DNA from: a virus
Lineage: Duplodnaviria > Heunggongvirae > Uroviricota > Caudoviricetes
DNA length: 25,237 nucleotides
Direction: 5' to 3' (one strand)
IMG/VR virus record: IMGVR_UViG_2706794662_000005
The position numbers and the translations under genes were made by a program. The notes beneath the pieces are model-generated. The model saw nothing but the letters and a program-made list of their open reading frames with translations, did no database searches and was not told where the DNA came from. Below, one piece after another: positions 1,925-23,956 of the stretch. Within the stretch, counting starts at the first letter, position 1. Each line of letters starts with the position of its first letter.

Positions 1925-2290
1925 ATGATTCTCGCCAACGACTTTCTTGAATACCTGCTCAACACAGAGCGTGATCTTGCCGCTCGCGTGCGTGATCGTT
2001 ATGACATGTACCTGAAATCCCTGCCTGTACCGCAGCTCGCTGACGGAAAGATTGTTATTGATGGTCGCTACATGATTGACAGCCACGAGGGAAATTACAG
2101 GCTTTACCGCATTGAAGGTGGCACCCCGTCCGTTATTGGCATTTACCAGCGCCCATCCTCTGCAATCGTCGATGTGATTGCCGACAGCATCCGCATCACA
2201 CATCGCCATGCCGACACAGAAGACACCGTGCTGGAAATTCAGCGGCTGGCTACAGTCTGCCGCGACACCCTGAATGGCATGACGAAGTAA
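1925..2290 (+). CDS. hypothetical protein immediately upstream of the rep gene (121 aa)
   Basis: ORF-track ORF ending 6 nt before the rep start codon; same strand as the operon. Confidence 0.5.
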   Translation: MILANDFLEYLLNTERDLAARVRDRYDMYLKSLPVPQLADGKIVIDGRYMIDSHEGNYRLYRIEGGTPSVIGIYQRPSSAIVDVIADSIRITHRHADTEDTVLEIQRLATVCRDTLNGMTK

Positions 2291-2296
2291 ATCACT

Positions 2297-5119
2297 ATGA
2301 CGGCAGAGTACATCAGGGACTGGCAACAACCGCGCCACGCAGTGGGGCGTGAAGGAACGGGGATCCCCGCTCCTGAATCCGCGCTTTCCTCCTGGCTGGA
2401 TGCCCACCGGGCAGAGAACGAGCGCCGCCAGGAAATGGCTGATGCGGCGTTCTCCGCCACGCCACTGGGCAACCTGATTAATAAAAGCCTGGACGCACAG
2501 GAAAAACAGGACAAAACCATCACACTGGCAGGAGACGCCAGAAAACAGGCACGCGGCGCGGTGGATGAAGCCATGGCCTCGCTGCGCCTGCTGCCGTCCT
2601 ATCTGCGCGATCCGCTTATTCGCCACCTCTCCTTCCTGCGCAAAAAACAGGAAGCCGATCGCCGGAAAGGCAAAAAGAGCTGGCAGGCGGAACGCTATGC
2701 ACGCGGAACCCTGCGCAAAATATTCGAACGTCTGGATCGCACTGACGGACACTGGCTGACACCGGGTTATCGCTCCCTTGCCGGACGTGAACGCCTGGAC
2801 GATTTGCTTTACCTGCCGCAACTCAACAAACACCAGATACAGACGCTGGCCACCATGACGGCGGCGATGTTCAGCAGCACCTTCGAAAAACTCTGCGATG
2901 GTTTTGGCGCGACTGATGGCGAGCTGACCATGGATGTAACGCTGAAGGCGTATCAGATGCTGGCCCGCATGGCGTTACACTTACACGCCATGCCTCCGCA
3001 TTATGACGCACTGACAACAGACAAAGACCGGAGGCACGAACCGGACACAGAACTGCTGCCGGGCGCAATCCTTCGCCTGACCTGTGCGGAATGGTGGAAA
3101 CGCAAACTGTGGCTGTTACGTTGCGAGTGGAGAGAAGAACAACTTCGCGCCGCCTGTCTGGTTTCCAGAAAAACATCGCCCTATCTGAGCCAGGACGCGT
3201 TAAGCGAGTTTCGCGCACAGCGCGAGAAAACACGCGATTTCCTGAAAAGTTTCATGCTGGAAAATGAAGACGGGTTCACGATTGATCTCGAGACGGTGTA
3301 TTACGCGGGAGTAAGTAACCCGGTTCACCGTAAGGCAGAAATGATGGCCACCATGAAGGGGCTGGAACTTCTGGCCGAAGCCCGTGGCGACAAAGCGGTG
3401 TTTCTGACTGTCACCTGCCCGTCAAAATACCACGCCACAACGGAGAACGGTCATCCGAATCCCAAATGGAACGGGGCCACAATGCGCGACTCCAGCGATT
3501 ACCTGGTTAACACGTTTTTTGCGACGGTCCGCAAAAAACTGAACCGCGACGGCCTGCGCTGGTATGGCATCCGCACGGCGGAGCCTCACCATGACGGCAC
3601 CGTGCACTGGCATATGATGGTCTTTGCTCATCCGGAAGAAATCGACACCATTGTGTCCCACACCCGCGATATTGCCATTCAGGAAGATCGTCACGAGCTG
3701 GGCGATGACATAACTCCGCGCTTTAAGGCGGAGTATGTAGACGGCTCAAAAGGCACGCCAACCAGCTACATCGCCACCTACATCGGGAAAAACCTGGACA
3801 GCCGCGCCGTGGATGGCATCGACCCGAAAACGGGCAAGCCACGCGTTGACCACGAAACCGGAAAATCAATGGCCGAGAGCGTGGAACGCGCCATCGGCTG
3901 GGCGCGCCTTCACCGGGTCCGCCAGTTCCAGTTCTTTGGCATCCCCTCCCGCCAGGTATGGCGTGAACTGCGCCGCCTTGCCAGCCAGATGGCACGCAAC
4001 CCGGAAGGCCCGCAACGGCTGAAGGATGACGCAATGGATGCGGTTCTTGCCGCCGCTGATGCCGGATGTTTTGCCACCTACATAGAGAAACAGGGCGGCG
4101 TACTTGTTCCACGCAAAGACTACCTGATTCGCACCGCCTACGACCTCGCCGATGAGCTGAACGATTACGGCGAACAGAGCGTACAGATTTACGGGATCTG
4201 GTCACCACTCATCGGGGAATCCTCCCGTGTGTGCACGCATCCGGATAACTGGAAGCTGGTAAGACGCAAACCGGAAGCGGAAGACAGCGCCCGCGAAAAT
4301 GGTTTTGACCTTCAGGGCGGCCCTGCCGCCCCTTGGACTCGTGGCAATAACTGTCCCCGTGTACAGGAAACGGACAACAACGGGACAGAACAGCCGGAAG
4401 AACGGCCAGCACCGTGGCCGCAGCTCCCTGACGGCGTTGATGTGGATGAATGGATGCGCTCACTGAAACGGCACGAACGCCGGGCGCTGATGCGTTCGCT
4501 TCGTGACAAACAGGCAAAAAACAGCAGTGATGAAATGCAGAGCTGGACACAGAGCCGCAAACAGCAGCGGCCTTTGCCTGATAACCACGAATTACTCGCT
4601 AAAGAATGGCGGGAGTCTGCTGAATCTCTCGGCCTGCATATCGGTGAACAACAGATGCAGCACCTGTTACGGGGCGGCAGTCTGTACGTTGACGGCAGCA
4701 TCATTGCACCGCAGGGATTTGAAATTGTACGCAAACCGGATACCCGCCCGGACAGCCGAATCACGCAGCTCTGGCAGCGCCTGAGCCGTAATCATGGCGT
4801 AAGCAGCACGGAGATCCGCCATAACCCGGTCGCCAGCTATCTGACACAGCTGGGGGCATCAGACCCTGAAGCCGCCGCACGCCTGGCATCCACACTTCAG
4901 CAGGACCAGAACACCATGAAAACACCCGTTACCGTGCTTTCTGACATGCTGCGCGCCATCCGCGACGCAGAGCACGCACAGAGAATCAGTGAAACCACTG
5001 AACGCGCCCGCCGCAAAGCAGACCTGCTGCGGGGTGGCCTGACCAGTGGAAACAAAAAACAGACAGAAACGGGACTCACGAATCCCGTAAATGAGCAAAA
5101 AACGCGCAGCGATATATGA
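2297..5119 (+). CDS. A: rolling-circle replication initiation endonuclease, P2 gpA-like (940 aa)
   Basis: HUH motif TVHWHMMVFAHPEE (about 3596-3640) and a paired-tyrosine motif YIATYIGKN (about 3763-3790), both typical of P2 A-family nickases. Longest ORF in the window. The C-terminal third is hydrophilic and low-complexity. Confidence 0.9.
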   Translation: MTAEYIRDWQQPRHAVGREGTGIPAPESALSSWLDAHRAENERRQEMADAAFSATPLGNLINKSLDAQEKQDKTITLAGDARKQARGAVDEAMASLRLLPSYLRDPLIRHLSFLRKKQEADRRKGKKSWQAERYARGTLRKIFERLDRTDGHWLTPGYRSLAGRERLDDLLYLPQLNKHQIQTLATMTAAMFSSTFEKLCDGFGATDGELTMDVTLKAYQMLARMALHLHAMPPHYDALTTDKDRRHEPDTELLPGAILRLTCAEWWKRKLWLLRCEWREEQLRAACLVSRKTSPYLSQDALSEFRAQREKTRDFLKSFMLENEDGFTIDLETVYYAGVSNPVHRKAEMMATMKGLELLAEARGDKAVFLTVTCPSKYHATTENGHPNPKWNGATMRDSSDYLVNTFFATVRKKLNRDGLRWYGIRTAEPHHDGTVHWHMMVFAHPEEIDTIVSHTRDIAIQEDRHELGDDITPRFKAEYVDGSKGTPTSYIATYIGKNLDSRAVDGIDPKTGKPRVDHETGKSMAESVERAIGWARLHRVRQFQFFGIPSRQVWRELRRLASQMARNPEGPQRLKDDAMDAVLAAADAGCFATYIEKQGGVLVPRKDYLIRTAYDLADELNDYGEQSVQIYGIWSPLIGESSRVCTHPDNWKLVRRKPEAEDSARENGFDLQGGPAAPWTRGNNCPRVQETDNNGTEQPEERPAPWPQLPDGVDVDEWMRSLKRHERRALMRSLRDKQAKNSSDEMQSWTQSRKQQRPLPDNHELLAKEWRESAESLGLHIGEQQMQHLLRGGSLYVDGSIIAPQGFEIVRKPDTRPDSRITQLWQRLSRNHGVSSTEIRHNPVASYLTQLGASDPEAAARLASTLQQDQNTMKTPVTVLSDMLRAIRDAEHAQRISETTERARRKADLLRGGLTSGNKKQTETGLTNPVNEQKTRSDI

Positions 5120-5167
5120 AGCGCGCACAAAACAGGCAAAAACGGGATTTCAGAATCCCGTAAACGA
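5051..5167. repeat. two copies of a ~42-bp direct repeat, each holding a 6-bp inverted repeat (ACGGGA-N8-TCCCGT); candidate parC centromere/operator or replication origin
   Basis: Palindrome cores at 5069-5088 (acgggactcacgaatcccgt) and 5142-5161 (acgggatttcagaatcccgt), with shared flanks aaacag.ca.aaacggga...gaatcccgtaaa. Copy 1 overlaps the last codons of rep; copy 2 lies 35-55 bp upstream of the parM start. Confidence 0.4.
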
Positions 5168-5195
5168 TTAATTAATCAACATAAGGAAAAGCGAC

Positions 5196-6155
5196 ATGAA
5201 AATTTGTATCGACGACGGCTCCACCAACATCAAGCTGGCATGGACTGAGAACGGCGAACGCCGCAACGCCATCAGCCCGAACAGCTTCAAGTCGGAATGG
5301 TCTGCGCCGTTCGGTGGCATGCAGCCCGCGAACTACATGCTTGATGGCGTGCGCTATGGTTTTGATCCGGTCAGCGATCGCTTTGTCCAGACAACCGACA
5401 CGCAATACCAGTACAGCGATGTAAATGTCATTGCCATTCATCACGCGCTGGTCAAATCAGGCATCACGCCACAGGAGGTGGATGTGGTTGTCACCCTGCC
5501 ACTGAGCGAGTATTTCGACACAAACGCACAGCCGGACATGGCCAACATCAACCGCAAAAAAGCGAACGTTATGCGCCCGGTGGAGTACCAGAACGGCGAA
5601 GCATTCACTATCCGTAACGTGCGGGTTATGCCTGAATCCATTCCGGCTGGCTTTAAGGCACTGGCTGACATGAGTCCGTTTGAATCCCTGCTGATTGTGG
5701 ATTTGGGCGGAACCACGCTGGATGTGGCAAAGGTTCAGGGGCAACTGGCAGGTATCAGCCAGGTGTTTTGCGATCCACACGTAGGCGTTTCTCTGATGGC
5801 CGATGCCGTACTGTCGGTGATGGCCACTAACGGTATGCGCACCAGTCACCACATCGCCAATACCATTATCGAACATCGCCATGATGAAGCCTGGCTGCGC
5901 CAGCACATCCACAATGACGCGCATTACGCCAGCCTGATGGCGGTTATTCGTGAAAAGGAAGAAACACTGAAACAACGCGTGATCCGCGCGCTGGCGGGTT
6001 TTTCGGGTTACGGGCGGGTGATGGTTGTCGGTGGAGGGGCGGAGATTGTGGCACCCGCTATCCGCGAAGCCTGCGGAGTTAATGCGACTTTCATCGCGGA
6101 CGGGGTGCCACAGTTTGCTCTGGTTAATGGGCTGTACGCAATGGACAAGGAGTAA
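5196..6155 (+). CDS. parM: actin-like segregation ATPase, ParM/StbA family (319 aa)
   Basis: N-terminus MKICIDDGSTNIKLAW and downstream blocks (ISPNSFK.EW, YQYSDVNVIAIHHAL, LIVDLGGTTLDV) match my recollection of plasmid R1 ParM. RBS AAGGAAA upstream. Confidence 0.85.
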   Translation: MKICIDDGSTNIKLAWTENGERRNAISPNSFKSEWSAPFGGMQPANYMLDGVRYGFDPVSDRFVQTTDTQYQYSDVNVIAIHHALVKSGITPQEVDVVVTLPLSEYFDTNAQPDMANINRKKANVMRPVEYQNGEAFTIRNVRVMPESIPAGFKALADMSPFESLLIVDLGGTTLDVAKVQGQLAGISQVFCDPHVGVSLMADAVLSVMATNGMRTSHHIANTIIEHRHDEAWLRQHIHNDAHYASLMAVIREKEETLKQRVIRALAGFSGYGRVMVVGGGAEIVAPAIREACGVNATFIADGVPQFALVNGLYAMDKE

Positions 6156-6159
6156 ACCA

Positions 6160-6471
6160 ATGACGACACCAACCAGACGGATAAGTTTCTATCTGAAGCC
6201 TGCGGCCGTCAAGAACGAAAGCGAAGCATGCGCCTGGCTGGGCAGCCTTACACCAGAAGCCCGCAAAAGCGGCCAACGCGTGGCTTTTCTGGCCGGGCTG
6301 GCACTTCTGAAAATGAATCCAGCAGAGGCTTACCGACTGGCTGCATGGGCTGACGATGAGGCGTTATCGGTGACACAAACCAGGACAGAACGCCCCGTGC
6401 CACAGCCAGTACCAACCGCACAGATAACCAGTCAGATAGCAGGGAATATCCGGGCATTATTTCCTGAATGA
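6160..6471 (+). CDS. parR: ParR/StbB-like centromere-binding adaptor (103 aa)
   Basis: Starts 5 nt after the parM stop with AAGGAG RBS. Small protein; N-terminal RRISFYLKPAAV and C-terminal IRALFPE resemble R1 ParR as I recall it. The ORF track lists the frame from 6025; 6160 is the in-frame ATG with an RBS. Confidence 0.65.
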   Translation: MTTPTRRISFYLKPAAVKNESEACAWLGSLTPEARKSGQRVAFLAGLALLKMNPAEAYRLAAWADDEALSVTQTRTERPVPQPVPTAQITSQIAGNIRALFPE

Positions 6472-6531
6472 CGAATTTGACGGCTTTTAATTTTATCGGG
6501 GTGCACTGTCGCCCCGCACGAGGAAAACACG

Positions 6532-7056
6532 ATGAAAAAATACGAATACATGCTAATGAAAGAAGCACTGCGGGCTGGTCTGGCTCCCTGTCCTGTATCC
6601 GTAGAAGCTGTTGTTGGGAACACGATTTTCCGAACGCTGCGAAATCGCGTATCCGTGAAGATGGTTCACCAACCACCCAAATCTACCAGCATGATCTATC
6701 TGCCGCTGCCCGAGGCTATCAAACTTATGCGTTCGCTGAAATTTGCGATTTGGATGCAGACACAAATCAACAAAGCGGTGCAAAACACCTTCGTTAAGAG
6801 ACTAATACCGGAGCTTGCTGCCAGATGTGCAAAATGTACCAGACCCGCACTTCAATTTGATCTGTCATTGATTCAACAAGCTACGGAGGCAGAACTGTAC
6901 CGCCTGTCACCTATCCGTGATGCTCACACGGAAGCATCAGAAATGTTCCGGCTCATGTTTCAATTTAATTTTGCCGTTCGACGCACACGCGTTCAGGTCA
7001 ATCGCATGATGCAGGAGCAGGAAGAGTTAACACAGTACAAAGGGGGCAGCCAGTGA
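6532..7056 (+). CDS. hypothetical protein (174 aa), first gene of an accessory cassette
   Basis: GAGGA RBS, ATG at 6532. No recognisable motif. Noticeably more AT-rich than the structural genes by eye (not computed). Its stop overlaps the next start (ATGA). Confidence 0.6.
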   Translation: MKKYEYMLMKEALRAGLAPCPVSVEAVVGNTIFRTLRNRVSVKMVHQPPKSTSMIYLPLPEAIKLMRSLKFAIWMQTQINKAVQNTFVKRLIPELAARCAKCTRPALQFDLSLIQQATEAELYRLSPIRDAHTEASEMFRLMFQFNFAVRRTRVQVNRMMQEQEELTQYKGGSQ

Positions 7057-7292
7057 GTAATTCAGCACGACTACAGCTTGGTTTTTCACCGCTATCAAAA
7101 ACCATCGTATTGGCAAAAATGCGTGACTTAGGAGACGGAACAAAACGCCGCGTAGGAAATGATCGCGGTCGCGATGTAACCAACGAGGCCGCTCAACTCG
7201 TTTGGCATCTAGTCATGGCAGAAGGCGGTGAAATTAATTGGGAGCTGGATGATGGTTCTCGTATGATTTTGAGGGCCGAGAAGAGTAAATAG
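7053..7292 (+). CDS. hypothetical protein (79 aa), second gene of the accessory cassette
   Basis: Translationally coupled to the upstream gene (ATGA overlap at 7053-7056). No motif recognised. Confidence 0.5.
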   Translation: MSNSARLQLGFSPLSKTIVLAKMRDLGDGTKRRVGNDRGRDVTNEAAQLVWHLVMAEGGEINWELDDGSRMILRAEKSK

Positions 7293-7306
7293 CTCAAGGG
7301 GGATTA

Positions 7307-7492
7307 ATGCTAAATGATGATGAAGAAGAGCTGCTTATGCAGGAATGGTCGCTCGGTGATTATGATAATGGTGAAAATGGGTGCCCGCATTGTGGCCGTT
7401 ATCGTTTATGTATCTGCCAGAATGGAAAACACAGATGTGAAAAGTGCAATTGGTCTCCGGAACTTAATGACTACGTGCCGATCGAGTGGTAG
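7307..7492 (+). CDS. small Cys-rich protein with putative zinc ribbon (61 aa), third gene of the accessory cassette
   Basis: AAGGGGG RBS upstream. Cysteine pattern CPHCG...CICQNGKHRCEKC and an acidic N-terminus. AT-rich. Confidence 0.5.
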   Translation: MLNDDEEELLMQEWSLGDYDNGENGCPHCGRYRLCICQNGKHRCEKCNWSPELNDYVPIEW

Positions 7493-7499
7493 AGGTAAG

Positions 7500-7980
7500 T
7501 CACACTAGGTGTTTTTTAGTTGATTTTATAAATGCACAATAGTGCACAAATTTGCACAATTTTTTTGAACGACTTTTTGCCCTTCCGGCCCGCGTGGCGG
7601 CTGGATCCGTCAAGGATCCGTGCATGCACAAAAAAACGCGTTTTTTCTGCGCGCAGGTGACGGGGGAACAGCCCGCGTTTCAGGGGGTAAATAGCATTCC
7701 CTGAACGATGTCGCAGAGATACAACAGAATGGCTGTATTTCTCACGCTGAGCGTGAAAAAGACGTGAGGGCTTTTGATTTGATGGGGTGAAAGGTAAGGC
7801 CGTCAAAATCGCACTGAGACGGCGAGAATATGCAGTCAACGAGGTGGGATTGCGTAAGAGTCTGACTGTCGATGATGGCAATCAGCAGGAAAGCGTCGTG
7901 AAATTATCTGACTGATACAGGAGCTGGAGAGTCGGGGCATAAATTTTTTATGCCCCGGCGAAGCAGCAGACAAGCGAAGC
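7500..7980. other. non-coding cos / packaging region (putative)
   Basis: About 490 bp without a convincing ORF between the cassette and the portal gene, where P2-family phages carry cos. Contains TGCACAA three times at exact 10-bp phasing (7533, 7543, 7553), GGATCCGT twice (7603-7610, 7614-7621), an A6-CGCG-T6 palindrome (7631-7646), a GC-rich 19-mer ggtgacgggggaacagccc (7656-7674) that loosely resembles the P2/186 cohesive end as I remember it, and a perfect 10-bp-stem hairpin at 7933-7957. Confidence 0.45.
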
Positions 7981-7983
7981 GCG

Positions 7984-9030
7984 TCAGGATGTGGGCTGGG
8001 TGTCTAACAGTGCGTAAGGGTTAAAGCGGATCACCTCTTCGCCAAGCCAGTCATTGATGTGCTTCATGGCCTCCATGACGGGCATCAGCTCGTTAATTGC
8101 GTAAACCCGCGCGGCCTTCTCCACATCACCAAACGCACTTTTTTCGCCCGGCATCGCCCCCATCAGTTGCGGCGGAACGCGGTGCGCAGCCAGCACATCA
8201 TCACGGGATGCCGCCTTAACATTCATGAACTCATCCTTTGCGGTGATCTGCTGGAACGGCAAAATTTGCACCCCCTCTTTGCCCCCGTTGGGCGCATGAA
8301 TGAGCACGTTTTTAAACGCACCACCACCACGTGCCCCCTGTAGCGTTTCTTTCAGGGAGTCCATGCTTTCGCGGTTTACCTGCGCTGCACCGATGTAGAT
8401 GATGCACCCGGCGTGGGATCCGTTGTCGTAGTACAGTTTTCTGAACATGTCCGCCGAATGAGAAAGGCTGGCCGAGAGTAATGCGCCAAGATATTCCGGC
8501 ATGCCGTAGATTTCCTGGTTAATATCCGGATTCATCAGGTGGCACACTTTGCCAGGACGAAACTGAAACGCATCCTTGCCATCCTGCACATACCACCATG
8601 ATTCAAGATCGCTTCCGCGTCGCATGTATTTCGCCAGGGCGTGCCGTAATTTAAGCGGTTCGCCGAGCATATTGCTCCGAAGCTCAAGGAATGCGTTACC
8701 GAACACAAACCAGTCCAGCGCCAGCGCCGAGAAATCCTGCCGGGAAAGCAGCGGGTGCGGAATATAGCAGCCGAGCAATACATTGCGCTTAAAGTAAAGC
8801 GCAGACTGATGCCAGGACGTTTGCCGGGCAGCTCTTGCCAGACCGTACCAGTCCACCGGGGTTTCATACCACCGCCCGTTATCAGCACAGTACATATTGT
8901 CCAGCAGGTCATGCCCGGTCAGGCGGTAAGGACCATCAAATGTGAATGCACTGAGCGACGATTCTTTCCTGAGCGCATCAGCGAGATCAATGCGTGAACT
9001 CATGCGCACTTTTTTATTTTTTCTGCTCAT
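7984..9030 (-). CDS. Q: portal protein, P2 gpQ-like (348 aa)
   Basis: Size, position next to the terminase and translational coupling (TGATG overlap with gpP at 9028-9032) match the P2 Q-P arrangement. Confidence 0.88.
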   Translation of the reverse strand: MSRKNKKVRMSSRIDLADALRKESSLSAFTFDGPYRLTGHDLLDNMYCADNGRWYETPVDWYGLARAARQTSWHQSALYFKRNVLLGCYIPHPLLSRQDFSALALDWFVFGNAFLELRSNMLGEPLKLRHALAKYMRRGSDLESWWYVQDGKDAFQFRPGKVCHLMNPDINQEIYGMPEYLGALLSASLSHSADMFRKLYYDNGSHAGCIIYIGAAQVNRESMDSLKETLQGARGGGAFKNVLIHAPNGGKEGVQILPFQQITAKDEFMNVKAASRDDVLAAHRVPPQLMGAMPGEKSAFGDVEKAARVYAINELMPVMEAMKHINDWLGEEVIRFNPYALLDTQPTS

Positions 9031-10781
9031 CAGAACTCCATAACCGTGAAACGCTCGTTTTCTCCTTCGCCGCCAATCGGTTCGTTAATGACAGCAAGCA
9101 TGGTTGCCCACGCAAGGTCGCCGTGGCTGATCCCCCTCGCGCGGTCCGTTTCGTAAGTGATAAAACCGCCCGGTGTTTTCACCTTACGCACGGCGTTAAA
9201 GGCCGCAACCAGCTCGCGTTCGGCGCGATCGTATTCCCACCGCCCGGCACGCATTATTTGCAGCATTTTCAGTACCAGCGACCGTTTTGATGACAGCGTG
9301 AAGGTGTAAGGGATGGCGGCGGGAAAAAACCGTTTCACTATCTGATAGACGGCATCCCCGTGCCCTCCCGTCGCATCAATGCCGATGTGTTCCACGTTGT
9401 AGCGATACGTGAACTCTTCAATAACTCTGGCCTGCTCTTCAAATTCCAGCCCCTGAACGCGTCGCGTCTCCACCGTTCTGAAACGACCACCAGGAACAGC
9501 CGGAGGAACCACCACGGACACAGCGCCGCTGTCGCCGTTACCACTGCTGCCGTTTGCGTCATACCCAATCCATACCGGACGATTCCCCATCGGGCGGGGG
9601 GCAAAGGGTTTCCAGTCTTTCCAGTCGTCGTATCCGTCAACACCGCAGCCAATCAGGATATTCAGGTTAAATGCCGATTCCCCTTCGCGGACAAACTCAC
9701 ACATATAGAGATTGCGGAACTCGTCTTCGGTGTTTTCATCACGAATTTCATCAATATCGGTGTGTTTCCAGCCGTGATTAACCACATCTTCCAGCGTGAC
9801 AATTTGCCGCCACGTCCGGTCAGGGCAGATAAGCCCGTTATGCAGCGTTTTCCAGTCCACAGAAAAACGCTGGCGTTTATGCGCGGCCTTTTTCTCGTTC
9901 CAGCGGTCGCCGTTCCAGTAGGCGTATGCCTCGTGCGTTTCGGTGGATGGCGTGGAGAAGCAGGTGCGCCGCAGTCCGCTGAGGGTTGCCATAGCGCCAG
10001 CCACCTTGCGCAGTTCAGCAAAGCGACTGACCCAGAAAAATTCATCAAAATAAAAATTGCCCGTGTAAGATTGCGCCGTCGCAGCAGAAGTGCCGAGAAA
10101 ATGCATCTCTGCGCCGTTGGAGAGGATGATTTTATCGCCCCCTTTCAGCTCCACATCGACTTCAGCCGCGGCCTTCTGAATAATGCTTTTAAACTGGAAC
10201 GCCTGACGACGCGACGCAGACAAAAAAATCTGGTTACGCTGGTAAGGTTGTGCCACATCGTCACGCAGCGCCATCAGCAGTGCTTCCTGTGCAAAATACC
10301 AGGTCGCCCCAATCTGTCGGGATTTCAGGATCATCCTGTTACGTATCCCGGCTTCCCTGCAAAGCGTCAGGGAGTCAAACCAGCCCCGCTGATGCCACTC
10401 CAGCCTGCTGATGATTTTTTCCCGCAGTGCGGCAATCTGTTCCGGCGTGAAATGATTTTTGAGTTTTTTCGCCCGGCCTTTCTTTCCTGTGGCCGTCGCA
10501 TCCGGCTGGCCATCATGCAGTTTTTTAAGCTGCCGGGTCAGCAGGTCTATTTCCTTAAAGTCACCACCTGTTTTATTCTGTTTTTCAGTAAGCTGGATGA
10601 GGCGCGCATCGATGGACTGCGTGACACGCTGCACGGGTGGCGTTTCATCCCACTGGTCGCGTTTTTTCCACGCATAAATCGTGTTCGGGTTTATTCCCAT
10701 CAGACGTGATATTTCTGCGGGCGGATAACCCTGCCAGTAAAGTTGCCGCGCACGCTGGCGCACAAAAGCGTCCTGAATCAT
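9030..10781 (-). CDS. P: terminase large (ATPase) subunit, P2 gpP-like (583 aa)
   Basis: 583-aa minus-strand ORF divergent from the scaffold gene, with GGGGAG RBS. An N-terminal HTH-like region (YPPAEISRLMGINPNTIYAWKKR) is followed by a large ATPase/nuclease body, as in P2 P. Confidence 0.9.
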   Translation of the reverse strand: MIQDAFVRQRARQLYWQGYPPAEISRLMGINPNTIYAWKKRDQWDETPPVQRVTQSIDARLIQLTEKQNKTGGDFKEIDLLTRQLKKLHDGQPDATATGKKGRAKKLKNHFTPEQIAALREKIISRLEWHQRGWFDSLTLCREAGIRNRMILKSRQIGATWYFAQEALLMALRDDVAQPYQRNQIFLSASRRQAFQFKSIIQKAAAEVDVELKGGDKIILSNGAEMHFLGTSAATAQSYTGNFYFDEFFWVSRFAELRKVAGAMATLSGLRRTCFSTPSTETHEAYAYWNGDRWNEKKAAHKRQRFSVDWKTLHNGLICPDRTWRQIVTLEDVVNHGWKHTDIDEIRDENTEDEFRNLYMCEFVREGESAFNLNILIGCGVDGYDDWKDWKPFAPRPMGNRPVWIGYDANGSSGNGDSGAVSVVVPPAVPGGRFRTVETRRVQGLEFEEQARVIEEFTYRYNVEHIGIDATGGHGDAVYQIVKRFFPAAIPYTFTLSSKRSLVLKMLQIMRAGRWEYDRAERELVAAFNAVRKVKTPGGFITYETDRARGISHGDLAWATMLAVINEPIGGEGENERFTVMEF

Positions 10782-11795: not shown

Positions 11796-12756
11796 ATGAA
11801 TCTGGTGATGTCAGATATTACCCGCAACAAGCTGGGTTGCTATATGGCGCAGCAGGCGTCGCTTAACAATATCCCGGTTTCTGCACTGGTATCGCGATTT
11901 ACCGTGGAACCTGCGGTGCAGCAACGTTTTGAAAACGCCTCAAAGGATAGCACCGAACTTACAAAAAAAATTAACGTGATCGGCGTGACCGACCAGAAAG
12001 GCGAAAAAATCCTCCTGGACACCACAGGACCGATTGCACGCACAAATACCAGTTATGACGGAACAAAACGCCGTAACCCGAATAACGTGGTTGATCTGAA
12101 AAACCGCAAATACCAGTGCGAACAGGTGAACTACGACACGTTTATTTCGTATCCGCAGCTTGATGCCTGGTCGGCACACAGCGATTTTCAGTCCCGCATC
12201 AGCGCACAGATTGCCCGACAGGTGGCACTTGACCGCATCATGATCGGTTTCAACGGCACATCTCACGCGGATGAGTCCAACTTCAGCACCAACAAGCTGC
12301 TTCAGGACGTTAACGTGGGGTGGCTGGAGCACATCAGAACCAATGCCAGCGAGCGCGTAATGAATGACGTGACGCTGACTTCCCGCAACATGGACAACAC
12401 CGTGGCGCACGCGGGTAAATACGCGAACCCTGATGCACTGGTACAGGACGCGCGCTCATCTCTGCTGGATGAATGGCACAAGGAAGCTGACGACCTCGTG
12501 GTGATTATGGGGCGCAACCTGTTTAACTCGCTGCGTCTGCCAGTGCTGAACAGCATCAGCGGCCAGAATCCCAATGCGGAATTACTTGCCGGGCAGCTCA
12601 TCCTGTCATCGCGCACCATTGGCGGGCTGGGTGTGTTCCTTGCACCGTTCTTCCCGGATGCAACGATGCTGATCACCTCATTCAACAACCTGTCGATTTA
12701 CTGGCAGAAAGGTTCAATGCGTCGTCTGATGAAAGACGAACCGGAATACAACCGCA
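11796..12756 (+). CDS. N: major capsid protein, P2 gpN-like (3' end lost in N-gap)
   Basis: AAGGAG RBS. Blocks FTVEPAVQQ, KYQCEQVNYDTFISYPQLDAWS, IMIGFNGT, LQDVNVGWL and NLSIYWQ match gpN as I recall it. The ORF track fuses it to gpM through the N-run. Confidence 0.88.
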
Positions 12757-13026
12757 NNNNNNNNNNNNNNNNNNNNNNNNNNNNNNNNNNNNNNNNNNNN
12801 NNNNNNNNNNNNNNNNNNNNNNNNNNNNNNNNNNNNNNNNNNNNNNNNNNNNNNNNNNNNNNNNNNNNNNNNNNNNNNNNNNNNNNNNNNNNNNNNNNNN
12901 NNNNNNNNNNNNNNNNNNNNNNNNNNNNNNNNNNNNNNNNNNNNNNNNNNNNNNNNNNNNNNNNNNNNNNNNNNNNNNNNNNNNNNNNNNNNNNNNNNNN
13001 NNNNNNNNNNNNNNNNNNNNNNNNNN
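12757..13026. other. assembly gap (N-run, 270 nt)
   Basis: Run of n characters; hides the gpN 3' end and the gpM 5' end. Confidence 0.99.
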
Positions 13027-13676
13027 CCAGAAGCGCGAAAGCCGACATCAAAAAAGCGTTGTTGCCGGACTTTTCCGGCTGGATTGAGGGAACGCTGGAG
13101 GCTGACGGCGGGCAACAGGACGAAGTGATTGCCACGCTGATGGTGTGGGCGATTGACTGCGGCGATCTTCCGCTTGCGCTGCGTATTGGTGCGTATGCGG
13201 TCCGTCACAACCTCATCATGCCGGATAACTTTGGCCGTACTGCTGCCACAGTGCTGACCGAAGAAATCTGCAATCCGGTACTGACGCAGGCCGGGACGGA
13301 TGCCGACGCGGATTTGTCCGTCTTTATCGAACCACTGGACACACTTTGGGAAATTGTCGCCAACCAGGATATGCCGGACGAAGTGCGCGCCAAATTATGC
13401 AAGGCGTGCGCCTTTGCCCGCCGTGGCCTGAGCGATGCGGACAGCATGGCCTCATCACTGAAGCTGCTGCGCGAAGCGATGCATCTGAACCAGAACGCAG
13501 GTGTGAAACGCGAGATTGCAACCCTTTCCCGCGCCCTGAAAAAAGCCGATTCCGCAGCCGCACCAGAAGACGCCAGCGCACAGCAGGCGCAGGACGAAAG
13601 CAGCGAAAGTAAAAAGACAACGCGGAAGCCTGCAACACGAAAAACCACCGCGACGCAGAAGGCGAAGCGCGGTTAA
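13027..13676 (+). CDS. M: terminase small (endonuclease) subunit, P2 gpM-like (5' end in gap)
   Basis: Post-gap translation ...VWAIDCGDLPLALRIGAYAVRHNLIMP...DMPDEVRAKL...NAGVKREI... followed by a basic tail resembles P2 gpM. Confidence 0.82.
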
Positions 13677-15567: not shown

Positions 15568-15839
15568 NNNNNNNNNNNNNNNNNNNNNNNNNNNNNNNNN
15601 NNNNNNNNNNNNNNNNNNNNNNNNNNNNNNNNNNNNNNNNNNNNNNNNNNNNNNNNNNNNNNNNNNNNNNNNNNNNNNNNNNNNNNNNNNNNNNNNNNNN
15701 NNNNNNNNNNNNNNNNNNNNNNNNNNNNNNNNNNNNNNNNNNNNNNNNNNNNNNNNNNNNNNNNNNNNNNNNNNNNNNNNNNNNNNNNNNNNNNNNNNNN
15801 NNNNNNNNNNNNNNNNNNNNNNNNNNNNNNNNNNNNNNN
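15568..15839. other. assembly gap (N-run, 272 nt)
   Basis: Run of n characters; hides the spanin 3' end, any embedded outer-membrane spanin and the gpR 5' end. Confidence 0.99.
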
Positions 15840-16926: not shown

Positions 16927-17490
16927 GCGCAGAACTCATGCGACTGCTGAGCAATATCATCCGCACCGGGATCATCTCTGAAGTTGATGAGGAATCCTGG
17001 TGCGTGCGCGTTCGCAGCGGCGAANNNNNNNNNNNNNNNNNNNNNNNNNNNNNNNNNNNNNNNNNNNNNNNNNNNNNNNNNNNNNNNNNNNNNNNNNNNN
17101 NNNNNNNNNNNNNNNNNNNNNNNNNNNNNNNNNNNNNNNNNNNNNNNNNNNNNNNNNNNNNNNNNNNNNNNNNNNNNNNNNNNNNNNNNNNNNNNNNNNN
17201 NNNNNNNNNNNNNNNNNNNNNNNNNNNNNNNNNNNNNNNNNNNNNNNNNNNNNNNNNNNNNNNNNNNNNNNNNNACTTTGCAGGCATCCATCAGCGTGAC
17301 ACTGAACACGCCTGTCGTGGAATGCACAGACCTTCTGAGAACAGCGACGCTTGACGTCACAAAAGGGGGAACGATGAGCGGCAATATCACGCACAGCGGC
17401 GGCGATTTCACCTCAAACGGCATCACAGTGCATACGCATAAGCACGGTGGCGTTAAAGGTGGCAGCGATTCGACAGGAGGCCCGCAGTGA
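16923..17490 (+). CDS. V: baseplate spike / assembly protein, P2 gpV-like (interrupted by N-gap)
   Basis: N-terminus MSAELMRLLSNIIRTGII... before the gap and C-terminus ...TKGGTMSGNITHSGGDFTSNGITVHTHKHGG... after it both match gpV. The two halves are in different frames across the N-run, so the N length is not the true gap length. Confidence 0.8.
17025..17274. other. assembly gap (N-run, 250 nt)
   Basis: Run of n characters inside gpV. Confidence 0.99.
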
Positions 17491-23706: not shown

Positions 23707-23956
23707 NNNNNNNNNNNNNNNNNNNNNNNNNNNNNNNNNNNNNNNNNNNNNNNNNNNNNNNNNNNNNNNNNNNNNNNNNNNNNNNNNNNNNNNNNNNNNN
23801 NNNNNNNNNNNNNNNNNNNNNNNNNNNNNNNNNNNNNNNNNNNNNNNNNNNNNNNNNNNNNNNNNNNNNNNNNNNNNNNNNNNNNNNNNNNNNNNNNNNN
23901 NNNNNNNNNNNNNNNNNNNNNNNNNNNNNNNNNNNNNNNNNNNNNNNNNNNNNNNN
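23707..23956. other. assembly gap (N-run, 250 nt)
   Basis: Run of n characters within the invertase locus. Confidence 0.99.

Follow-up and report, generated by a model that had tools for sequence, protein, structure and literature searches.

Between the replication/partition genes and cos of a P2-family prophage, the initial annotation noticed three co-oriented small genes and proposed them as a novel defence or exclusion module. Were this true, the locus would encode a new three-gene anti-phage system. Do the three genes belong together, and do they protect the lysogen? The evidence says that there is no such system, and it is probable that the three genes are independent small early accessory genes of the lambdoid "ea/exo-xis" type.

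Three genes occupy the variable gpA-gpQ slot of a P88-like prophage

The window, that is, the whole stretch of 25,237 nt analysed here (IMG/VR record IMGVR_UViG_2706794662_000005), comes from a P88-like (Xuanwuvirus) prophage of the P2 family. The three ORFs, their flanks and their coordinates were confirmed; ORF1, ORF2 and ORF3 are all encoded on the + strand and occupy the variable slot at 6473-7532. The features of the region are as follows.

2297-5119, gpA replication gene, upstream of the slot
5196-6155, + strand, ParM (StbA; Pfam), actin-like segregation ATPase, conserved left backbone of the slot
6160-6471, + strand, ParR (Plasmid_stab_B; Pfam PF10784, 2e-23; PHROG 2515)
6473-6531, + strand, 59-nt leader that moves together with the ORF1 module, SD GAGG 8 nt ahead of the ATG
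6532-7056, + strand, ORF1, ATG start, 174 aa
7032-7060, + strand, recombination junction, 29 bp common to the ORF1 module and the ORF2-ORF3 module
7053-7292, + strand, ORF2, GTG start, 79 aa
7307-7492, + strand, ORF3, ATG start, 61 aa
7493-7532, + strand, 3' tail of the ORF2-ORF3 module, reaching the flank common to P88
7533-7983, strand not given, conserved cos-side flank
7984-9030, - strand, portal protein (gpQ type), right border of the hotspot
9030-10781, - strand, large terminase

The conserved left flank stops at 6472, where homology to three related loci (L001, L002 and L003) ends. Its parM gene is 97-98% identical at the nucleotide level to those of P88 and E. coli prophages, and the product matches Pfam StbA_N (2.7e-82) and the ParM C-terminal domain (1.3e-68). 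On the other side, the cos-side flank opens with three TGCACAA repeats (a palindrome), encodes tiny ORFs homologous to gp21 and gp22 as annotated in P88, and contains a hairpin at 7933-7957 downstream of the portal gene. The 59-nt leader gave no sign of a promoter, a terminator or a known RNA family, and an Rfam search of positions 5000-8100 gave no match at E≤1. A hairpin considered at 6497-6516 in the leader is no more stable than shuffled sequence (z-score 0.02).

Flanked by the replication gene A on one side and the portal gene Q on the other, and adjoining cos, the slot fits the definition of the gpA-gpQ hotspot already described in P2-family phages (Rousset et al., 2022; PMC9122126) and treated also by Moura de Sousa et al., 2026 (PMC13586616), as the initial annotation had stated. 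ParMR is found in this hotspot in about a quarter of P2-like phages (surveys in PMC9122126 and PMC13586616), and about 21% of the hotspot cargo protein groups match DefenseFinder (10.1101/2024.10.15.618418). A survey of the same slot in relatives bore out that its cargo is variable: the flanks are 95-98% identical among close relatives while the slot content differs, including ClpX-type zinc-finger (ClpX-ZnF), Ead/Ea22, DUF3800, XF1762, DUF7446 and other genes. One longer P88-type slot carries SSB, ClpX-ZnF, ORF1 and Ead_Ea22 consecutively, and small co-directional hypothetical genes fill the slot in other relatives. P88-like flanks match in 1,564 of 5,426 complete E. coli genomes.

The cassette is more AT-rich than its surroundings, as the initial annotation had noticed: the GC content is 0.45-0.48 in the cassette (0.480 in ORF1, 0.475 in ORF2 and 0.446 in ORF3) against 0.54-0.58 in the flanks (0.577 in gpA, 0.553 in parM, 0.541 in the portal gene and 0.542 in terL). 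The other "AT-rich islands" in the window, with GC of about 0.2, are runs of N.

ORF1 is the only one of the three without a catalogued family

None of the three proteins had been assigned to a recognised family at first sight. This stands for ORF1, while ORF2 belongs to DUF7446/PHROG 1578 and ORF3 to PHROG 24897. ORF1 is basic (pI 10.0, net charge +12) and has no predicted TM segment; sequence and profile searches found no match in Pfam, PHROG, PADLOC, NCBIfam or PDB. Its family comprises 8 clusters among 5.8 billion proteins, and a profile search returned 3 representatives among 1.84 billion, all of the close family. The AF2 model, of low confidence (pLDDT 49.8), suggests a small beta N-terminal part followed by long C-terminal helices. 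ORF1 constitutes an orphan family restricted to P88-like slots. All 24 ORF1 loci in IMG/VR sit in the slot between ParMR and the portal gene (20 display both ParM and ParR, and the remainder are cut contigs), and no homolog was found outside such slots among the IMG/VR loci. An Ead/Ea22-like gene follows ORF1 in 18 of the 24. Among the 5,426 complete E. coli genomes, 29 carry ORF1.

ORF2 is a full-length match to Pfam DUF7446 (PF24233; 61 bits against a cut-off of 24.1, profile positions 2-67 of 70). It is 81-97% identical to annotated members, most of which have a short variable C-terminal tail that ORF2 lacks. A literature search retrieved no paper that mentions DUF7446, and the second structure model made was also of low confidence (pLDDT 60.9). 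The family is widespread, occurring in lambdoid pL operons, phage-plasmids and a virulent N4-like phage, and is present in 235 of the 5,426 E. coli genomes. In a lambdoid operon (L009), the gene order is N, ral, kil, recT ... DUF2737, DUF7446, ead/Ea22 ... torI (xis-like), int; in phage Bas82, the DUF7446 gene lies in a run of small genes behind the primase gene, and in the virulent N4-like phage EcP1 it lies in the early/middle region.

ORF3 is acidic (pI 4.4, net charge -8) and matches the PHROG 24897 HMM over its full length (E 2.6e-46, positions 1-60 of 60). A variable acidic N-terminal tail precedes a strongly conserved core with two CxxC knuckles that resemble a zinc ribbon. The Cys-rich motif CPHCG...CEKC seen at first reading is present, with the spacing CxxC-x14-CxxC and a rubredoxin-type CPxCG knuckle, and both CxxC pairs are kept in 21 aligned homologs. 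Among the 19 invariant columns of this alignment are C29, C44 and C47, and C26 is at least 90% conserved. Profile matches to the zinc ribbons of RpoM, eL43 and TFIIB are weak and sub-threshold (E 0.02-0.4), as is that to Pfam Zn_ribbon_IS1595 (17.1 bits, under the cut-off of 25.4).

ORF1, ORF2 and ORF3 are genuine genes rather than chance ORFs: dN/dS is 0.12-0.16 in ORF2 and about 0.1 in ORF3, and ORF1, with a dN/dS of 0.38, nevertheless has 73 columns that are invariant across homologs down to 56% identity. We regard it as very unlikely that they are decaying or non-functional hitch-hikers. Such a fate could be read from the tiny distribution of ORF1, from its higher dN/dS, which comes from only 16 differences, and from one natural contig in which an IS3-family element interrupts ORF1 with ORF2 and ORF3 intact. 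However, ORF1 retains an intact frame, purifying selection is clear on ORF2 and ORF3, and ORF3 homologs from different orders of Proteobacteria are still 60-87% identical.

Two modules recombined to give the trio

The initial annotation read the three genes as one system. Their arrangement invites this: they are tightly packed, ORF1 and ORF2 share 4 nt (GTGA), the SD AAGGGGG lying 7 nt upstream, ORF3 follows ORF2 after 14 nt with its own SD, and the same three genes are seen again in Shigella sonnei and in 4 IMG/VR contigs. These occurrences are 98-100% identical and thus represent a single lineage. In all other contexts, each gene was found apart from the others. ORF1 occurs alone in L002, L012 and L013, ORF2 alone in L009 and L010, ORF3 alone in L004-L008, and ORF2 with ORF3 but without ORF1 in L003. 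The 4 contigs are the only ones in IMG/VR with all three genes, and in 41 of the 45 ORF3 loci there, neither ORF1 nor ORF2 lies within 4 kb of ORF3. The complete trio is found in none of the 5,426 complete E. coli genomes. Co-occurrence across genomes and contexts therefore does not show the obligate association of a multi-gene system. A toxin-antitoxin pair of the basic ORF1 and the acidic ORF3 is likewise unsupported, as the two are together in one lineage only.

The modules that recombined circulate independently of each other, and they meet in the trio at a conserved gene junction of 29 bp. Overlapping BLAST segments define this junction, with similarity to L002 extending up to 7060 and that to L003 beginning at 7032; the mosaic breakpoints are 6472, 7032-7060 and 7532. 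Within the junction lie the SD and the stop/start overlap (GTGA), and its coding sequence gives the C-terminal tail KGGSQ, which also terminates the hypothetical protein hyp75 of L003 and the lambdoid DUF2737 protein. The same 4-nt overlap couples ORF1 to Ead/Ea22, and hyp75 or DUF2737 to DUF7446, so that the coupling belongs to the junction and not to a partnership of ORF1 and ORF2. A cohesive novel defence or abortive-infection system of three genes is hence extremely improbable. The trio instead arose when a slot of the type "ORF1 + Ead/Ea22" was joined at 7032-7060 to one of the type "ClpX-ZnF + hyp75 + DUF7446 + ORF3".

The genes probably extend the early operon

ORF1-3 are co-directional with the early A-parMR operon and follow it with gaps of 61, -4 and 14 nt. 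Between parR and ORF3, no promoter or terminator was predicted except for one weak promoter-like match at 7238-7267, and since the scan was a crude consensus search, the lack of an own promoter is a weak result. The match lies in the 3' end of ORF2 and could serve only ORF3. In P2, tin and old are on the opposite strand and have a mapped transcript start of their own; Orf91 runs in the same direction as A. For ORF1-3, this consensus-only scan gave neither the own promoter nor the independent transcription unit of a defence unit of the tin/old type. The early operon of P2 itself carries DUF5405 and a DksA-like zinc-finger gene.

The initial annotation saw no resemblance to Tin, Old or the common defence effectors, and this was borne out. 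No family of PADLOC-DB 2.0.0 matched any of the three proteins at E≤10. The best BLASTP E-value against Tin, Old, Orf91 and Rst_3HP, with sequences taken from Table S2A (Rousset et al., 2022) and Old compared over about its first 400 residues, was 0.95 over 12-15 residues.

Taken singly, one or more of the genes could be a new superinfection-exclusion or defence factor of the lysogen, transcribed when polymerase reads through from the parMR promoter. In lysogens, the parMR operon is probably active, like the autoregulated parMR systems of plasmids, so that read-through could express the slot there, which is compatible with exclusion functions. Small size and a lack of recognisable domains are found among validated defence genes in some cases. 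Moreover, the genes are variable cargo of low GC in a validated hotspot that holds many true defence systems, the proteins are uncharacterised, ORF1 is not found outside this slot, and the slots of relatives hold other co-directional small hypothetical genes. Nevertheless, we consider such a factor rather unlikely, given that the PADLOC search was negative, no own promoter was predicted, the orientation is unlike that of tin/old or of the DUF3800 gene of the same slot, and the TM segments and enzymatic domains typical of effectors are absent from all three proteins. In addition, ORF2 has homologs in early operons of lambdoid type and in a virulent N4-like phage, and ORF3 adjoins packaging genes in many phage types. 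Because of the early-operon orientation and packing, the absence of a predicted promoter, and the ORF2 homologs in a pL operon and a virulent phage, the evidence leans against a lysogen-protecting defence role for ORF1-3. Of the original interpretation, the hotspot, its variability and the lack of similarity to Tin and Old hold, whereas the unity of the three genes does not.

ORF3 is conserved across phage types

The ORF3 family comprises 36 clusters and was seen only in prophages and metagenomic viral contigs; tblastn against 50,697 deposited phage genomes gave no match. One of the 5,426 E. coli genomes has it, as do six genomes of Proteobacteria other than Escherichia, in which it is accompanied by neither ORF1 nor ORF2. 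From Escherichia to prophages of Erwinia, Xanthomonadales, Neisseriales and Methylophaga, the core is 60-87% identical, and the carriers include P2-like, P22-like and other phage types.

This distribution bears on whether the genes serve the neighbouring machinery, ORF3 in cos recognition or packaging and ORF1 in ParMR partition. ORF3 is the last tracked gene before cos/portal in all P2-like loci with cos to the right (about 20), and together with the adjacent cos flank it forms an 89%-identical block in Salmonella prophages. Elsewhere, it is often located at most three genes upstream of the large terminase gene or beside the small terminase gene. In every case found, ORF1 lies behind ParR or behind a ClpX-ZnF gene that itself follows ParR. 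However, packaging and partition proceed in most P88-like and P2-like phages in the absence of these genes, and a single E. coli genome has ORF3 against the 1,564 with P88-like flanks. ORF3 is also found with unrelated terminase and portal types, and operon ends near cos or pac are general collecting points of accessory genes. A role in the neighbouring machinery is accordingly quite unlikely.

That the ORF3 core is so unusually conserved agrees with a conserved target. We tentatively entertain the possibility that ORF3, and perhaps DUF7446 too, is a phage protein that inhibits or modulates either a highly conserved component of the host or the host immune system. In that case, ORF3 would be a counter-defence or host-takeover gene inside what is usually named a "defence hotspot".

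A probable shared pool of small early genes

The explanation that we favour is that the three genes act independently of one another. ORF1-3 would form the promoter-distal end of a rightward early unit in which gpA is followed by parM-parR and then by the slot. They probably come from a pool of coupled small early genes that are swapped among enterobacterial temperate phages at conserved junctions; other members of this pool would be Ead/Ea22-like, ClpX-type zinc-finger, SSB-like, DUF5405, DUF2737 and DUF7446 genes. The proteins would be made from the polycistronic early/parMR mRNA upon infection or induction, and each probably acts singly as a small binding protein: ORF1 as a helical, basic and possibly nucleic-acid-binding protein, ORF2 as a putative small alpha/beta domain, and ORF3 as an acidic tail with a putative zinc ribbon that may be directed at a well-conserved target. 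Judging from gene context, the genes would serve phage development, such as host takeover, lysis-lysogeny balance or counter-defence, rather than protection of the lysogen.

On this reading, ParMR-carrying (P88-like) phages fill the gpA-gpQ hotspot with small early genes that are interchangeable and come from the pool that also supplies lambdoid pL operons. In this hotspot, guilt-by-association should be judged for each transcription unit and each gene rather than for the slot as a whole. All three families are uncharacterised; a targeted interaction screen would be worthwhile for DUF7446 and for the putative zinc ribbon of ORF3, given how well the two are conserved.

Comparison with known systems

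ORF1-3 resemble known P2 hotspot cargo in their position, in the same slot adjoining cos, and in being content that varies between near-identical backbones. They differ from tin/old, an opposite-strand unit with its own promoter, in that they probably extend the early operon. The proteins of the validated hp+hp+hp system (Rst_3HP) are about 230-360 aa and have no similarity to ORF1-3.

The C4 zinc-finger regulators (the TraR/DksA-like Orf73 of lambda, P2 Orf82 and Ogr/Delta) are similar to ORF3 in size, in the acidic N-terminal segment preceding a four-cysteine zinc motif, and in the setting as an early accessory gene. ORF3 is not a member of the TraR/DksA-like or Ogr-like families, as no zf-dskA_traR or Ogr_Delta match was obtained (Pfam, E≤1). 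With no family match and a different ribbon likeness, the similarity is an analogy only.

The small genes of the lambdoid exo-xis region and the P22 "ea" genes (ea22, ea8.5, orf60a, orf61, orf63 and orf73) are likewise small, coupled, non-essential and arranged in shuffled early arrays. BLASTP of ORF1-3 against lambda ea8.5, ea22, orf61, orf63 and orf60a gave no match better than E = 6, and a literature search on DUF2737, DUF5405 and Ea22-like proteins yielded nothing relevant. A place in the pL operon, with the recombination genes on one side and xis-int on the other, was seen for the ORF2 family (L009), and the array of ORF1-3 is attached to a P2-type replication/partition operon, whereas the exo-xis array is attached to pL. 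The exo-xis genes have been reported as the earliest-expressed modulators of the lysis-lysogeny decision (PMC7093339; PMC8614690). The likeness to such arrays lies in the DUF7446 gene standing beside ead/Ea22 in a lambdoid prophage and in the Ead/Ea22-like genes that are the usual partner of ORF1 in the P88-like slot.

Three small genes between ParR and cos

The window is part of a P2-family phage or prophage of the P88-like type (genus Xuanwuvirus, Peduoviridae). Its region 5100-8000 is 94-98% identical to Escherichia phage P88 and relatives, the match being limited to both ends of that region.

Features of the locus (coordinates in the window)
2297-5119, gpA replication endonuclease (Pfam Phage_GPA, 6.6e-131)
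5196-6155, ParM
6160-6471, ParR (Plasmid_stab_B)
6532-7056, plus strand, ORF1, 174 aa
7053-7292, plus strand, ORF2, 79 aa, GTG start
7307-7492, plus strand, ORF3, 61 aa
7533-7983, conserved cos-side flank
7984-9030, minus strand, portal
9030-10781, minus strand, large terminase

The coordinates, gene order and base composition bear out the initial annotation, which placed three co-oriented ORFs between the replication/partition genes and cos and described them as looking more AT-rich than the flanking structural genes. GC is 0.480, 0.475 and 0.446 for ORF1, ORF2 and ORF3 versus 0.54-0.58 in neighbouring genes. ORF3 begins 14 nt after the ORF2 stop codon and carries a Shine-Dalgarno (SD) sequence of its own. 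All three are genuine genes. That they are non-functional is very improbable given a dN/dS of 0.12-0.16 for ORF2 (versus lambdoid and Bas82 homologs) and ~0.1 for ORF3 (versus Salmonella homologs), and 73 ORF1 columns that are invariant among homologs as low as 56% identity; dN/dS for ORF1 is 0.38, computed on 16 differences only.

Other elements were noted in the window. A 42-nt direct repeat in two copies (5053-5094 and 5126-5167; 81% identical, 73 nt apart) straddles the gpA stop codon and the spacer before parM; the palindrome ACGGGAyT..GAATCCCGT is present in both copies, and the repeat could be a parC centromere/ParR binding site or a replication element. Exactly at the start of the conserved cos-side flank, an imperfect palindrome with three TGCACAA motifs (7533-7565) may bind a protein, either one connected with cos/terminase or a regulator. 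Two tiny ORFs within this flank, 7552-7704 (50 aa) and 7787-7915 (42 aa), correspond to genes annotated gp21 and gp22 in P88, and may be real genes or simply conserved cos DNA. Four runs of N (250-272 nt) lie within structural genes (12757-13026, 15568-15839, 17025-17274 and 23707-23956); the apparent AT-rich islands (GC ~0.2) in the composition profile are this masked sequence and not biology, and the runs also create artificial long ORFs such as 11796-13676.

ORF1 and ORF2-ORF3 are independent modules

Breakpoints were placed by local BLAST against fetched relatives. The left conserved flank stops at 6472; from 6473 to 7060 the sequence matches E. coli PEC41 at 98% identity, and there an Ead/Ea22-like gene follows ORF1 via an identical 4-nt overlap. 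E. coli FDAARGOS_943 matches 7032-7532 at 99% identity; in it a ClpX-type zinc-finger gene and a 75-aa ORF precede ORF2 and ORF3, and the right conserved flank begins at 7531-7533. The two modules thus share 29 bp (7032-7060; 6561-6589 in the ORF1-only relative L002 and 6001-6029 in the ORF2-ORF3 relative L003), consisting of the SD AAGGGGG and the GTGA stop/start overlap of ORF1 and ORF2. The C-terminal tail encoded by this junction, KGG(S/N/K)Q, ends the otherwise unrelated ORF1, 75-aa ORF and lambdoid DUF2737 proteins, the last of which is encoded upstream of DUF7446; therefore, the coupling belongs to an exchange linker and not to an ORF1-ORF2 partnership. The linker looks like a recombination joint through which P2-like and lambdoid phages would exchange small early genes.

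Across the fetched loci, each gene was found without the other two. In all 24 ORF1 loci of IMG/VR, the gene occupies the ParMR-to-portal slot (ParM and ParR are both visible in 20, the others being cut contigs); ORF1 is partnered by Ead/Ea22 in 18, by something else in two, and belongs to the trio in four, which are 98-100% identical to the window. Neither ORF1 nor ORF2 occurs within 4 kb in 41 of 45 ORF3 loci, ~16 of which are P2-like prophages without ParMR and the rest other phage types. Of 5,426 complete E. coli genomes, 29 have ORF1, 235 have ORF2 (with 48 places on plasmids), one has ORF3 and none has the full cassette; the trio is present in Shigella sonnei GCA_900160585.1. In locus L017 (IMG/VR UViG_2850808358_000008), probably from a Shigella host, an IS3-family element (IS600-like orfA/orfB, 2193-3433) cuts ORF1 at about codon 54 and leaves ORF2 and ORF3 intact, so that ORF1 has been knocked out naturally in a member of this prophage lineage.

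The initial annotation had proposed the trio as one novel defence, abortive-infection or superinfection-exclusion system. As every gene occurs without the other two and the coupling belongs to the shared linker, the three very likely do not form a cohesive system, and we give that original proposal almost no weight. This particular trio is a rare recombinant and one more example of the mosaic of accessory genes carried in the P2 gpA-gpQ hotspot.

Cargo of the slot and protein families

From 18,150 E. coli loci, Rousset et al. (2022, PMC9122126) defined the stretch from gpA to gpQ as a hotspot and noted a partition system there in about a quarter of P2-like phages. The flanks of our slot match 1,564 of the 5,426 complete E. 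coli genomes, and the contents between them are very different: a ClpX-type zinc-finger gene and hypotheticals in P88 itself, Ead/Ea22-like genes, an XF1762-family gene, DUF3800 on the opposite strand, and further types. The premise of a known, variable P2 hotspot was therefore sound, and the proposed survey of relatives found the cassette to be rare. In E. coli strain 605 (L085, 1104-1910), the DUF3800 gene stands alone on the opposite strand of the same ParMR slot in a tin/old-like layout; the slot thus holds two cargo architectures, stand-alone opposite-strand units and co-directional arrays of small genes.

The locus type, the ORF2 family and the ORF3 family are already catalogued, and the ORF1 homolog annotated in PEC41 (WP_000759755) is already listed as 'hypothetical' in the published hotspot table (PMC9122126). 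The claim that no protein belongs to a recognised family stands for ORF1, which had no matches in Pfam, PHROGs, NCBIfam, PADLOC or PDB sequences, and falls for ORF2, a full-length Pfam DUF7446 member (61 bits against a cut-off of 24.1) also in PHROG 1578, and for ORF3 (PHROG 24897, E 2.6e-46). ORF1 forms 8 clusters among 5.8 billion proteins, with 3 representatives in a profile search of 1.84 billion; ORF3 forms 36, and ORF2 at least 372 across Enterobacterales with a mean column identity of 80%. ORF1 is strongly basic (pI 10.0), ORF3 strongly acidic (pI 4.4), and none of the three has a transmembrane-like segment. Structure prediction of ORF1 gave no usable answer (pLDDT 49.8).

By sequence comparison, the trio matches no known defence family, in agreement with the initial annotation: PADLOC models gave no match at E<=10, and BLASTP against P2 Tin and Orf91, roughly residues 1-400 of Old, and each protein of the three-component 'hp+hp+hp' system validated by Rousset et al. 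gave no E better than 0.95. A role of a single gene in exclusion or defence is unlikely but deserves weight, since the hotspot holds many true defence systems, ~21% of its cargo protein groups matching DefenseFinder (10.1101/2024.10.15.618418), and transcription of parMR probably continues in lysogens, where the slot could then be expressed by read-through.

ORF3 is conserved across phage types

The Cys-rich motif reported for ORF3 is upheld by two conserved CxxC knuckles; profile matches are all sub-threshold and all to classical zinc ribbons (RpoM, eL43 and TFIIB). The 61-aa core retains 60-87% amino acid identity in Erwinia, Rhodanobacter, Lysobacteraceae, Craterilacuibacter, Marilutibacter and Methylophaga (L088-L093), and the family spans several phage types (IMG/VR loci L019-L059). 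Packaging genes often adjoin it: in P2-like prophages with cos to its right, ORF3 is the last tracked gene before cos/portal (~15 of the ~16 without ParMR), and in other phages it often lies <=3 genes upstream of the large terminase, sometimes with an HNH endonuclease or integrase nearby. We regard a packaging or partition accessory role as improbable. This conservation and spread suggest a conserved target and make ORF3 the most interesting remainder.

Comparison with lambdoid early genes and P2 tin/old

DUF7446 occupies the exo-xis or 'ea' region of a lambdoid prophage, whose pL operon reads N, ral, kil, recT, ... DUF5405, DUF2737, DUF7446, ead/Ea22, ... torI (xis-like), int. Other homologs are found behind the primase gene of phage Bas82, among a series of small genes, and in Enterobacter phage EcP1 (NC_019485; L097, 2495-2674), whose early/middle region has a shortened version of 59 aa (71% identity over residues 6-61) near a dCMP deaminase gene. 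EcP1 belongs to Schitoviridae, N4-like phages with an obligately lytic life cycle. Lysogen protection is an unlikely purpose for a gene that a virulent phage keeps, which speaks against the exclusion or defence role.

A longer metagenomic P88-type slot, with SSB, ClpX-type zinc-finger, ORF1 homolog and Ead_Ea22 genes in succession, looks like a lambdoid early accessory array, and P2's own early operon includes DUF5405 and a gene for a DksA-like zinc finger. In lambda and Stx phages, exo-xis genes are reported to be transcribed among the first and to tilt the choice between lysis and lysogeny (PMC7093339, PMC8614690); Orf73 is reported to target RNA polymerase directly (PMC9239242). We consider it probable that ORF1, ORF2 and ORF3 are independent small early accessory genes and not one system. 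They would be expressed from the far end of the early/partition transcript, and each protein probably acts alone as a small binding protein to the benefit of the phage, in host takeover, a developmental decision or counter-defence.

A consensus scan found neither a promoter in front of ORF1 nor a terminator ahead of ORF3, and no Rfam family or unusual RNA structure was present. Gene orientation argues against the old/tin model, because the trio runs the same way as A-parMR, spaced by 61, -4 and 14 nt, whereas P2 tin and old lie on the strand opposite to A and are transcribed from a mapped start of their own; Orf91 is the sole one of these three P2 genes that continues the A operon.
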